A DNA stretch of 64,000 nt from a virus, in IMG/VR virus record IMGVR_UViG_3300034355_001150, positions 1-64,000 of that record. The stretch is one strand, 5' to 3'. This document shows positions 1 through 3,057 of the stretch, piece after piece. A model generated the notes under the pieces. It was not told the DNA's origin, did no database searches, and saw only the letters and a program-made list of their open reading frames with translations. Both the position numbers and the translations under genes were made by a program. The number at the start of each line of letters is the position of its first letter. Within the stretch, counting starts at the first letter, position 1.

Positions 1-25
1 AGAAGCAGTTACCACCGTATCCCAT
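1..25 (-). CDS. 5' end of a second copy of the DNA methyltransferase gene (runs off the window edge)
   Basis: ATG at 25 gives MGYGGNCF, identical to the start of 949..1791. Confidence 0.6.
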
Positions 26-127
26 TACAAATCTCCGAATAAGTTATTCTTCTGTAGTTTCGGTGAGTTCTTCGGTTTTTTCCGGCAAGGAATGACCATT
101 TTCATGAAATAGCCTCTCCATAACATT
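1..127. repeat. Exact 127-bp direct repeat, copy 1 (copy 2 at 1767-1893)
   Basis: Identical to 1767-1893; covers the end of the 98-aa gene, the intergenic spacer and the MTase start. Confidence 0.95.
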
Positions 128-139
128 AACCATGTGAGA

Positions 140-168
140 ATTGTACATAATGTTTTCCTAAATGTCAA
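140..168 (-). promoter_or_regulatory. Sigma70-type early promoter
   Basis: TTGACA-N17-TACAAT on the minus strand, directed at the duplicated MTase start. Confidence 0.75.
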
Positions 169-175
169 TCTTTTT

Positions 176-949
176 TTAATATTTTATCATTTTTATGGTT
201 TTTATGTTGGCAAATCCACTAAAGCGACAATGAACATTTATAACATCAATACAGTCCGTTAATCTTTTCTTTACTTTTTGAGCCTCTGGTTCAGTGTTGA
301 CATGAATATATACATACAATCTATGATCGGATGATCCCATATTGGGGGCCGAGTTTCCGTTGAGAATTACGATATTCTCGTTGCTCGCAGACCTGGTCAA
401 CGGAACACATACTCTAAGATCGGACGTGTTACACTGATCTATCTTGAACTCTCTAACTAGATTATCAGTTACGCTTAGTTCTGTTGCAACTCTGAGATGG
501 CCGCTTTTTGGCAAGAATCCCAATGTTGTGTCCTCTCCACTAACAAATCGCAATCCATCAGTGCCACCTTTGTTGACGATAACTACACCAAAAGTTGATC
601 CAACTCCTGCAAAATGTTTCGCAATAGATGTAACATCAGCTAAACTACTGTATCTATTAAATATATTCCAAAGTCTTGTTTCTTCATGAAGTTTATCTGG
701 CACTTTAAAATCATCCGAAGGCGAAGTCCAAGAAGTCGGTGTAATCAAAGATATTATCCCATTATCTGTCGCAACTTCAATTGATTTAATCCAAAATTTG
801 CTCCATAGATTGCTTGCCTGATCCTTCCTCTTGCCCCCCGCTTTGGTGCTTTGGAACGGAGGATTACCTACCACTATGTCAAATTTCATATCTGTTTCCC
901 ATGTCAAAAAGTCGGCTCTGATTACGTTCTTGAACCGGCCATGCAACAT
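176..949 (-). CDS. C-terminal half of an amino-DNA methyltransferase (NPPF motif plus alternative target-recognition region; lacks SAM-binding motif I)
   Basis: MLHGRFKNVIRADFLTWETDMKFDIVVGNPPF identical to an internal segment of the upstream MTase; ATG overlaps the upstream TGA (TGATG). Confidence 0.8.
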   Translation of the reverse strand: MLHGRFKNVIRADFLTWETDMKFDIVVGNPPFQSTKAGGKRKDQASNLWSKFWIKSIEVATDNGIISLITPTSWTSPSDDFKVPDKLHEETRLWNIFNRYSSLADVTSIAKHFAGVGSTFGVVIVNKGGTDGLRFVSGEDTTLGFLPKSGHLRVATELSVTDNLVREFKIDQCNTSDLRVCVPLTRSASNENIVILNGNSAPNMGSSDHRLYVYIHVNTEPEAQKVKKRLTDCIDVINVHCRFSGFANIKTIKMIKY

Positions 950-951
950 CA
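861..951. repeat. 91-bp near-identical repeat, copy 1 (copy 2 at 1457-1547)
   Basis: 4 mismatches, all synonymous third positions; encodes the segment leading into NPPF. Confidence 0.95.
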
Positions 952-1791
952 ATTTTCAATATATATTTTTATCAGATCATGCTTTGATAGACATGGCATA
1001 CCAACAGTTTCACATGCTGCTCGCCTGAGTAAAGGATACAATCTTTTTAATTTTTCCGTTACGTCGTCATTAGCAACTCTTAAAAAGTAATGATCTGCTT
1101 TGTAGTGTAGGAAATTTTCAGTCTTAACTTTTGCACATGGTCCATTTCCAACCCGACCAACAAAAACATTCGCTTCAGATTTATCAACGAATTTAAAATC
1201 CCGATGAGTAGTGAATCGTTCATGTATCGCTCTTTTTTCCGACTCAACTCGCCAGTGTTGCCAACATGTAATAATACCGCCACCAAATGAGCTATCAGGG
1301 TTATCGTGATCCTGTATCAAGTGTAAATGCCTATCAATTCGATTAACGTATGATATTTTACGCATAGTTTTGGGCAAAATCATATAAATTTCGTCGGAAA
1401 AGTTTTTTGCATGATTTAGGAATTTCATAGCTAAATTGGCATTTTTTCCAAAAGGTGGATTGCCTACCACGATGTCAAATTTCATATCTGTTTCCCATGT
1501 CAAAAAGTCGGCTCTGATGACATTCTTGAACCGGCCATGCAACATCATGCGATTAGTTGCCCATATTGCCTTATCAAGAACATATATGCGATTATTTATG
1601 TAATCATCTTCAAAGCCTAATTTTCGCATTCGGCGAACGATCACTATCGACTCAGTTCCATATCCACAAGCAACATTCAGTATCTTAATATCTGGATTTA
1701 GAAATACCTCATCGGGTATTTTGTCAATGATTTCTGTCCACAAATCAATACTATCGGGATCGCCCAAGAAGCAGTTACCACCGTATCCCAT
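949..1791 (-). CDS. N6-adenine/N4-cytosine DNA methyltransferase (motif I then motif IV then TRD)
   Basis: Motif I ILNVACGYG, ADFL, motif IV FDIVVGNPPF, variable C-terminal region. Confidence 0.85.
   Translation of the reverse strand: MGYGGNCFLGDPDSIDLWTEIIDKIPDEVFLNPDIKILNVACGYGTESIVIVRRMRKLGFEDDYINNRIYVLDKAIWATNRMMLHGRFKNVIRADFLTWETDMKFDIVVGNPPFGKNANLAMKFLNHAKNFSDEIYMILPKTMRKISYVNRIDRHLHLIQDHDNPDSSFGGGIITCWQHWRVESEKRAIHERFTTHRDFKFVDKSEANVFVGRVGNGPCAKVKTENFLHYKADHYFLRVANDDVTEKLKRLYPLLRRAACETVGMPCLSKHDLIKIYIEN
1457..1547. repeat. 91-bp near-identical repeat, copy 2
   Basis: Matches 861-951. Confidence 0.95.
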
Positions 1792-1893
1792 TACAAATCT
1801 CCGAATAAGTTATTCTTCTGTAGTTTCGGTGAGTTCTTCGGTTTTTTCCGGCAAGGAATGACCATTTTCATGAAATAGCCTCTCCATAACATT
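1767..1893. repeat. Exact 127-bp direct repeat, copy 2
   Basis: Matches 1-127. Confidence 0.95.
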
Positions 1894-2130: not shown

Positions 2131-3057
2131 TTAAGAACGTGTTAGTTGAGCTAATTCTACCAGCGTTGCGCTCAGATTTATTTCCTGATCGCTGATGAAC
2201 GGCACGTTTACCAATCCATTTCGTATGATGATGATAGCTTCATCTTGTTTATAAACATCCGTTGTCCATAAGTCCAAGTTATCATAACACCACCTGAATA
2301 TCTCTTCCATTTCATCTTGTCTCGCCGATGAACAGATTAGTTTTCTTGCTTCGGTTGGTTTACCTGACTTGAATAGCTCAACAGCCGATAACTTCCAATC
2401 GGAAGAAGAACGATCATTTTCACGTGGGCTAATCAGTTTTCCACCGGTTGAATTCATTTGCAGATTGTTGAGGCATTTTCTTAAATCAGGATAAGTGGAC
2501 CTAACATAATTGTCCAAAGTATCCAAATCAAAATCAACACCTTCTTCTACAAGAACAGTAGCTACTCTGGCTGTAAACTCGGTTGCATCAAGTTTATCAA
2601 TATGGAAGCCTTGGCACCTAGAATGGATAGCCGGAATAATTTTATGAGGGTAGTTGCACGTAAGGATGAATCGTGCTGTTTGATGATATGCTTCCATCAT
2701 GTGGCGCATACTTGCCTGTGCATTTGGTGTACAAAAATCAAACTCGTCAAGTAATACTACCTTGAAATCGCCGAAAGGCATTGTTTGAACGAAATTCGTG
2801 ATTTTATCGCGGATAGTGTCAATACCATTTTCCCTTGAGGCATTGATTTCCATAAAATCAAATGGGTCAACTTCTAATAGATTGACGAGAATTTTGGCAA
2901 GTGTTGTTTTTCCGCAACCTGGACCACCCGACAACAACACCTGGGGGATAGATTTTTCTTTAACCCAGCCCTCAATCGTTTCTTTTTGAGCTTGATCAGC
3001 GAAAACATAACCGTCCAATGTTGACGGACGATGACTTTCAACCCATAGTTTTGACAT
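2131..3057 (-). CDS. Sliding-clamp loader small subunit (RFC / T4 gp44-like AAA+ ATPase)
   Basis: LWVESHRP N-terminus, Walker A GGPGCGKT, INAS, Walker B VLLDEFD, SRC motif, DLRK. Confidence 0.95.
   Translation of the reverse strand: MSKLWVESHRPSTLDGYVFADQAQKETIEGWVKEKSIPQVLLSGGPGCGKTTLAKILVNLLEVDPFDFMEINASRENGIDTIRDKITNFVQTMPFGDFKVVLLDEFDFCTPNAQASMRHMMEAYHQTARFILTCNYPHKIIPAIHSRCQGFHIDKLDATEFTARVATVLVEEGVDFDLDTLDNYVRSTYPDLRKCLNNLQMNSTGGKLISPRENDRSSSDWKLSAVELFKSGKPTEARKLICSSARQDEMEEIFRWCYDNLDLWTTDVYKQDEAIIIIRNGLVNVPFISDQEINLSATLVELAQLTRS

Follow-up and report, generated by a model that had tools for sequence, protein, structure and literature searches.

Why should a phage keep, directly behind a complete DNA methylase gene, a second methylase gene that lacks the front part of the enzyme? 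This question is raised by positions 1–1893 of a viral contig from the IMG/VR collection (IMGVR_UViG_3300034355_001150; 89,766 bp, rated 27% complete), of which bases 1–64,000 are referred to here as the window. The contig belongs to a freshwater T4-like phage, and the sequencing runs that carry the phage are lake and other freshwater metagenomes. The locus comprises a full methyltransferase gene (MTase C) and a front-less gene (C'). The interpretation favoured here, with rather more confidence than doubt, is that the two genes belong to a modular family of N6-adenine methylases of the gamma class (M.TaqI-like, Pfam Eco57I), of which this locus forms one arm, and that free halves of the family are completed in trans. 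Each enzyme of the family would consist of a cofactor-binding front half (motifs X and I–III) and a back half, in which motif IV (NPPY/F) is followed by the remainder of the catalytic sheet and by the DNA-reading domain.

Organisation of the MTase C and C' locus

The genes of the locus are all encoded on the minus strand, in the order 98-amino acid (aa) gene, MTase C, C'. MTase C (949–1791) is a fused gene of 280 aa, in which a front half for binding S-adenosylmethionine (SAM; residues 1–114), shared with other genes of the contig, is followed by a 166-aa tail. C' (176–949, or 176–949/952 in the open reading frame (ORF) list; 257/258 aa) possesses its own catalytic half and DNA-reading domain, and its ATG (949–947) overlaps the TGA of MTase C (951–949) as TGATG. 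The original prediction, made from the letters of the window, had described a full methylase (949–1791) followed through TGATG by a half-gene (176–949), and the ORFs and sequence confirm it. The start of C' is the second methionine of NRMMLHGRF, 27 residues ahead of the NPPF motif, and 31 codons of the shared front half (MLHGRF...GNPP) are retained; the database gene call for C' (P0017) begins at an inner methionine (MKFD) and is 237 aa long. Fusion of C with C' by read-through or frameshifting was considered and rejected, given that the overlaps are ordinary stop-start overlaps in different frames.

The segment running from motif III to motif IV is present twice, as a direct repeat of 97 nucleotides (nt) at the 5' end of C' (855–951) and at the equivalent place within MTase C (1451–1547), with a spacing of 596. 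The copies are identical at 91 of 97 positions (94%), which is far beyond the other two-copy repeat families of the window (15–32 nt, 64–88%), these families being the measure. All six differences are at third codon positions and synonymous; the four that had been noted over a 91-nt stretch were recovered. Beyond the shared GNPPF, which is catalytic motif IV in both proteins, C and C' are 18% identical, in agreement with the earlier description of a repeat leading into NPPF and then an unrelated C-terminal region. Contigs of 591–597 nt occur in each of three runs from near-identical samples (X1–X3); their ends (47 nt and 65 nt) lie on the front-half segment with ~480 nt between, and by length they would correspond to the unrearranged C'–C junction (window 905–1496, 592 nt).

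Both proteins exceed the cut-off for Pfam Eco57I (PF07669). MTase C was positive in each sequence test of Eco57I membership, with a match to the small methyltransferase domain MTS (PF05175) at residues 33–131 and VACGYGTE present. C' was found to have no N-terminal SAM motifs (X, I–III) of its own: motifs X, I–II and part of III are absent, and the protein aligns to Eco57I profile positions 63–163 of 171 only (E 1.5e-14). The variable part starts directly after motif IV and so holds, besides the DNA-reading domain, those catalytic motifs that are left. The earlier statement that the target-recognition domain follows motif IV was imprecise: motifs V–VIII come first.

The tail of MTase C (window 949–1450) is short: it has only 166 aa, the Eco57I profile is matched just to position 94, and its DNA-reading part may be very small. 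Its relatives, as found by tblastn against phages, include cyanophage free halves and genes annotated 'putative DNA N6-adenine methyltransferase' in ~150-kb Escherichia and Klebsiella phages, and a word-based search with this tail returned P0004 only.

One shared front half and eight back halves

A second locus on the same strand, at contig 68.7–74.3 kb, holds MTase A, A', a 217-aa ORF, h289, MTase B and B', which adds five family members to those of the original prediction and brings the contig to three fused genes (A, B and C) and four front-less genes (C', A', B' and h289). MTase A (368 aa) and MTase B (365 aa) are fused. A' (274 aa) is joined to A by an ATGA overlap, B' (302 aa) follows B after a 10-nt gap, and h289 (289 aa) is front-less. 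The Eco57I cut-off is passed by all seven catalytic modules of the contig.

The front halves of A, B and C differ at 18–31 of 342 nt (91–95% DNA identity), and the seven tails are only 14–25% identical in protein in all 21 pairs. The boundary between constant and variable sequence is sharp at the NPP(Y/F) codons in every copy. Counted through NPPY/F, the front-less genes keep 12 to about 40 front-half codons; they start at the conserved methionine of MKFDIVVGNPP, as A' and B' do exactly, or up to ~40 codons earlier (18–41). A nearly identical front half is carried by at least four genes (A, B, C and probably a further gene, D, described below), and the eight back halves are mutually unrelated.

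The 217-aa ORF (contig 71736–72389, minus strand) replaces the first ~72 codons of the h289 front half and has no Pfam, NCBIfam or PHROG match. The remaining front-half codons of h289 (LDRTIWATNRIRILGG...) start directly after its stop codon. A decayed front half upstream of h289 was considered and rejected, as the in-frame match of these codons (LDRTIWATNRIRILGG...) to the front half of a database relative (P0007) indicates truncation.

A free cofactor half of 158 aa lies nearby (contig 76556–77032, minus strand; Pfam N6_Mtase positions 22–108). It is followed by ORFs of 280 aa and 451 aa, the three together occupying contig 74346–77032 on the minus strand, and the gene order is cofactor half, 280-aa ORF, 451-aa ORF, MTase A. 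Neither ORF has a Pfam or PHROG match. The metagenome locus L074 (2289–3692) pairs a cofactor half with a homologue of the 280-aa ORF (26% identity, E 3e-18).

The start of the contig and a probable gene D

The original prediction had also passed over a repeat at the contig end. Positions 1–127 (minus strand) are a perfect copy of 1767–1893 (minus strand), which holds the start of MTase C, the spacer and the 3' end of the 98-aa gene. The block thus contains 84 nt from the 3' end of the 98-aa gene (1810–2106; duplicated at 44–127), then a spacer of 18 nt, then 25 nt that open a methylase ORF (MGYGGNCF). On the right, between 127 and 128 versus between 1893 and 1894, the two copies truly diverge, and the left edge is the contig end; as the contig simply stops within the block, the true repeat is probably longer. 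The block is separated from the C' stop codon by 48 nt (128–175). Because it opens a methylase ORF, another methylase gene starts after C' and this spacer, the assembler having stopped in the repeated front half; 127 is a value often used as the largest assembler k. The C–C' unit (1766 bp) is bracketed by the direct 127-nt repeats, a pattern that a tandem duplication or a single-crossover insertion would give.

The likeliest continuation left of the window is probably D, the eighth tail, of the P0005 type. Its front half is closest to that of C (111 of 114 residues, with three differences in the 135 nt known), and contigs joining NPPY to the D tail are present in X1, X2 and a further run, X6. 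A 20.9-kb IMG/VR contig, one end of which lies within a D-type front half (from codon 70), carries the D tail and then unrelated genes, among which there is no other half gene. A scan of viral contigs with a 43-nt stretch of the 127-nt block gave no match; records near the window's own were possibly left out of this and the other contig and metagenome scans for close relatives reported here.

On the other side of the locus, the 98-aa gene matched no family over cut-off in Pfam and PHROG searches. It is adjoined by a clamp-loader-like AAA+ gene (window 2131–3057, minus strand; Pfam AAA, DNA_pol3_delta2), which fits a T4-like replication module.

Exchange of back halves at the motif III–IV segment

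Sequence comparison between relatives makes it very probable that back halves have been exchanged over evolutionary time. The clearest case is B'. The database protein P0003 (404 aa, on a 1517-bp contig, eight member sequences) has a tail identical to B' at 290 of 290 residues, i.e., B' in fused form, behind a front half identical at 112 of 114 residues both to A and to B. In X6, whose phage is a relative ~94% identical (105 differences in 1637 nt), the B' contig extends upstream of MKFD by 30 nt of front-half sequence, which encode RADFLTWETE in the same frame. Furthermore, P0007 (373 aa) has a tail identical to h289 at 242 of 259 residues and its own complete front half, by which comparison h289 is a truncated version of a gene kept whole in relatives. 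Together, these three cases imply that, from one close relative to another, a given back half passes between being fused and being free, and that the break falls within the motif III–IV segment. The fused and free versions of the same tail differ by 0–6% in sequence.

The front halves carry traces of the same process. All 18 differences between A and B fall within nt 9–160, leaving nt 161–342 identical (a 182-nt tract); if differences were evenly spread, the chance of such clustering would be ~1e-6 (0.468 to the 18th power). Within nt 161–342, 10 sites distinguish C from A, so constraint alone fails to explain the identical tract, which looks like the product of recent conversion or crossover. 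In C', a 93-nt part of the segment is a mosaic: two sites agree with C, three agree with A and B, and three are private to C'.

In the near-identical samples the second locus was recovered in the order of the contig. The A/A' junction is present in all of X1–X3, and the segment from B' through the B tail to NPPY was found on one contig with 0 differences in X1 and X2, and on two contigs in X3. The B tail had no cover at 90% likeness in X6, which is not counted as absence, and depths over the front-half segment are sums over its many copies and are not copy numbers.

Free halves in other phages

Genes of the C' type are not confined to this phage. Proteins that start at MKFD/MQFD..GNPP and are 30–54% identical to C' were found in the protein collection (P0048, on contigs of up to 141 kb, P0064, P0065 and P0068). 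A metagenome scan with an alignment of the C' family (A2) gave 80 loci (L028–L107) with 83 catalytic ORFs: 71 were full length, 10 were free (<70 residues of open frame before NPPY) and two touched a contig edge. L031 and L039 each carry two free halves in tandem, and L040 carries the end of a tail, a cofactor half, an ORF, a free catalytic half and a near-identical cofactor half. Over this 3-kb contig (L040:3–2896), differing catalytic/DNA-reading halves alternate with two nearly identical cofactor halves (141 and 151 aa of open frame); the locus shares the logic of the present phage, a constant cofactor part and a variable back part, but is fully split.

Cultured phages possess the same parts. 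In the T4-like cyanophage P-SSM2, PSSM2_036 is a free catalytic half of 193 aa (start MKFTLAIGNPPY) that aligns over its whole length with MTase C residues 103–279 (40% identity, E 5e-43), and the overlapping PSSM2_037 is 33% identical to the 158-aa cofactor half. In S-CAM7, also a T4-like cyanophage, gp076 and gp077 are an overlapping free catalytic half and free cofactor half, with the NPPY of gp076 ~30 residues in, and gp056/gp057 are a methylase gene followed by an overlapping free cofactor half. The p65301 protein of Aeromonas phage 65 joins the two halves the other way round, with an FDYVIMNPPY start, NPPY at residues 13–16 and motifs X and I–III in the C-terminal part. For the 158-aa cofactor half, 2993 relatives are known at E≤1e-3, of which 846 are at E≤1e-10; the best 150 are mostly of 100–250 aa, with a few long proteins that carry the module at the C- or N-terminal end. 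In PHROGs it groups with two small-protein families and with the C-terminal end of a 383-position family.

Searches with other parts of the system returned little. Matches of MTase A in cultured phages were ordinary full-length or large fused methylases, with no arrays, and in the viral-contig scans MTase A gave two weak loci, the DNA pattern of the shared segment one contig, and P0048 none.

At eight residues ahead of the asparagine of NPPY, the methionine of the pattern M-x-F-D-h-h-h-G-N persists even in fused genes, in which it does not serve as start codon. It is present in 34 of 71 full-length metagenome ORFs and in 31 of 36 full-length A2 members, against a methionine frequency of 1.8% in these ORFs. 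The residue may have a structural role, may maintain an internal start, or may make it easier for a fused gene to become a free half.

The state of C' and its predicted partner

C' keeps all 17 invariant and 33 near-invariant positions of the family. Its structural model (predicted local distance difference test score, pLDDT, 90.7) has M.TaqI as best fold match (E 2e-6, TMq 0.53–0.56), followed by CamA, and the C' family sequence profile matches CamA, M.BseCI and M.TaqI. The model aligns over ~335 columns with M.TaqI chains, and a DNA-recognition domain is predicted in it on this basis.

The proposed history and action of C' are as follows. Homologous or unequal recombination would have inserted the C tail ahead of the C' tail, cutting the latter off from the front half, and C' would thereby have been born as a free gene; the 97-nt repeat could re-fuse front half and C' tail through an in-frame deletion of 596 bp. 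Free C' would be translated by TGATG coupling or from the inner MKFD methionine, and a free cofactor half would then complete it in trans; the contig has just one gene for such a half, that of 158 aa. The whole set would methylate many motifs and shield the phage DNA from host restriction. The methylation and anti-restriction roles are read from family membership, and anti-restriction is plausible on those grounds.

The trans step was modelled with the 237-aa form of C' (alignment A2) and the 158-aa half (alignment A1); as these were custom alignments, calibration is only rough. The predicted complex scored 0.85 (runs 0.85, 0.87 and 0.85) versus 0.62 for the best control, and thereby passed; 58 of 80 solved complexes attain the mark, as do 2 of 110 mismatched pairs. 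The pass may stem from a resemblance to methylases solved as single chains. At least 81% of the contacts were common to the runs, and the partner pLDDT was at least 80. C' residues 3–8 (strand 4, FDIVVG) are predicted to contact partner residues 59–64 (strand 1 and motif I, FLDPSCGDG), which would rebuild the methylase sheet; the model supports binding without showing it. The original suggestion that the half-protein pairs in trans draws some support from this predicted complex, from the M.TaqI-like fold and from the cyanophage split pairs, but an adjacent cofactor gene is missing.

Several observations weigh against this account. The pass of the modelled complex is weak evidence, given that one control reached 0.62. 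Within the contig, C' and the sole free cofactor half are ~75 kb apart, and the latter belongs to another sequence family than the shared front half (E 0.002–0.007 versus A, B and C). C' has no cofactor gene behind it; beyond the 48-nt spacer, the 127-nt block opens a fused gene instead. A start at 949 would give C' 20 front-half codons that duplicate the third strand of the partner, with a possible clash. Because the contig is estimated to be 27% of the genome, partners other than the 158-aa half may exist. The synonymous repeat differences, which the original prediction took as a sign that both copies are selected as protein, prove little about selection on the C' copy, as three of the six are alleles also present in the A and B front halves, i.e., shared between paralogues.

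Direct traces of a fused C' are likewise missing. Among 85 C' relatives in a large protein collection there is no fused C', and only the free P0017 (four contigs) exceeds 57% identity; the next-best relatives are full-length methylases of 49–57% identity with unrelated front halves. A metagenome scan with P0017 found no close relative of C'. Nor was the 596-bp deletion seen, the runs having been compared as k=31 contigs, which fragment within the 47 nt over which the repeat copies match exactly and in which rare variants are lost. The comparison of arrangements in relatives that had been proposed thus yielded B' in both fused and free form, but C' only as the free P0017. On balance, activity of C' itself in trans is a tentative proposal, for which belief falls slightly short of doubt.

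Alternative explanations

The strongest alternative to a modular family with trans completion, although an unlikely one, is that C' is an inert remnant, i.e., the displaced tail of an older fused gene, left after insertion of the C tail, too young to have decayed and functionless. The fused forms of B' and h289 in relatives are in its favour, as they make the free copies here derived or ancestral truncations, as are the different cut in h289 (with the 217-aa ORF replacing the first ~72 codons), the inherited paralogue alleles that account for half of the synonymous differences, and the want of a free cofactor gene after C'. A functionless remnant would nevertheless sit poorly with the reading frames, which are intact in all four front-less genes (257–302 codons), and with their starts, which in three of the four are at a native in-frame methionine with a stop-start overlap or a 10-nt gap. 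Every invariant family residue is present in C', and the free-half design recurs at 30–54% identity and in cultured phages.

As the 97-nt repeats are direct, the 596-bp deletion would be one-way and irreversible within a genome. No inverted repeats connect the cassettes: none of the four inverted pairs in the window joins them, and all copies are direct on one strand. These features bear on a second alternative, a programmed or high-frequency switch, in which recombination between 861–951 and 1457–1547 would often delete 596 bp, C' would be silent until fused, and specificities would be mixed in the population. The repeat is in frame and 91/97 identical, an analogous B' fusion exists, A and B share a conversion tract, and T4-like phages recombine very actively, all of which would suit such a switch. 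The unfused B–B' and A–A' orders were however assembled in each of the near-identical samples X1–X3, fused B' is known only from the ~94% relative in X6 and the one 1517-bp contig (P0003), and the protein collection and metagenome scan hold no fused C'. The free halves are conserved as genes in distant phages, contrary to silence. Such a switch is improbable, and of the cassette exchange through a conserved flank that the original prediction proposed, the part that gained support is exchange on an evolutionary scale, seen in B'; its application to the C/C' pair and the idea of frequent switching gained none.

Slightly less probable still is a restriction-like machine, in which the back halves would be specificity subunits for motor-like genes at 74.3–77.0 kb (Type ISP-like), targeting both cutting and methylation. 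This idea derives from the order of cofactor half, 280-aa ORF, 451-aa ORF and MTase A, and from the pairing of cofactor half and 280-aa ORF homologue in L074. Against it, the two ORFs match no Pfam or PHROG family, nuclease and helicase motifs are seen in them by eye only, and the C/C' locus is ~72 kb away beside replication genes.

An assembly artefact, in which the tandem C–C' order or the repeats come from mis-joined strain variants, is suggested by the perfect 127-nt repeat at the contig start (the signature of ending at a repeat node) and by the summed depth of the front-half segment, and is very improbable given that the 97-nt repeat is shorter than 127 and has six mismatches, so that 127-mers span into unique sequence on both sides, that the free P0017 is called on four contigs, that the A–A' and B–B' junctions recur in X1–X3, and that the 591–597-nt contigs there would fit the length of the C'–C junction.

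Comparison with known systems

A close likeness to C' is found in the cyanophage pairs (PSSM2_036/037 and S-CAM7 gp076/gp077), in which the catalytic half is free, as in C'; PSSM2_036 starts at its own MKF..GNPPY, and the start of C' is the same as those of P-SSM2 036, P0048 and P0064. Each cyanophage pair consists of one catalytic half and one adjacent, overlapping cofactor half, whereas no cofactor gene comes after C'. In addition, a C-type tail is here fused behind a different front half, and eight tails share one front half in one genome. The cyanophage records annotate both halves as hypothetical proteins only. The solved methylases M.TaqI, CamA and M.BseCI share with the present family the motif order, the NPPY/F motif and a C-terminal DNA-reading domain, but they are single chains with one specificity each, whereas C' is without motifs X, I–II and part of III.

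A resemblance is also evident to phase-variable Type I restriction-modification loci (pneumococcal ivr/tvr and Bacteroides fragilis). There, according to published accounts, truncated, promoter-less hsdS genes share short repeats with the expressed gene, and recombination changes the methylated motif; these loci have inverted repeats, often a dedicated recombinase, and reversible switching within a clone (PMC6265443, PMC7641763, PMC7672463). The phage locus differs in its direct repeats, in having no recombinase tied to it, and in that half of the catalytic domain is part of what is exchanged. Multispecific cytosine-C5 methylases, in which several recognition modules, some of them dormant, are placed behind one core, are the answer of the Bacillus phages SPR, phi3T and rho11s to many restriction systems. 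Their modules lie in one C5 polypeptide, in contrast to the separate adenine-methylase genes and gene halves described here. Literature searches on phage methylase arrays and on split methylases yielded no description of such a phage array.

DNA methylases are a documented case of permutation by duplication, according to a review (PMC3320104, citing Jeltsch 1999 and Bujnicki 2002). The opposite order of p65301, the gamma order and the split forms match the routes of duplication/truncation and fission/fusion proposed for this class of enzymes. The published case for permutation rests on distant comparisons, whereas the fused and free tails compared here are 0–6% apart.

Implications for phage methylation and enzyme evolution

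A wider, combinatorial reading is conceivable and unlikely: one or a few cofactor halves, free or fused, would serve at least eight back halves, and recombination in the 36–97-nt segment would continually convert free, fused, duplicated and lost states in populations. If it were true, specificity would be multiplexed per genome and variable between sibling genomes, making the system a phage counterpart of the bacterial phase-variable methylases and a live example of splitting and permutation.

If the parts work as proposed for the modular family with trans-completed halves, the phage would possess a large and easily re-sorted methylation repertoire, and a wider range of host restriction systems would be survivable. 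Since a back half is met fused in one phage and free in another that is closely related, natural sequences can be used to test directly the long-proposed routes of fission, fusion and permutation. Free halves, should they rebuild an active enzyme, would be useful natural split-methylase parts.

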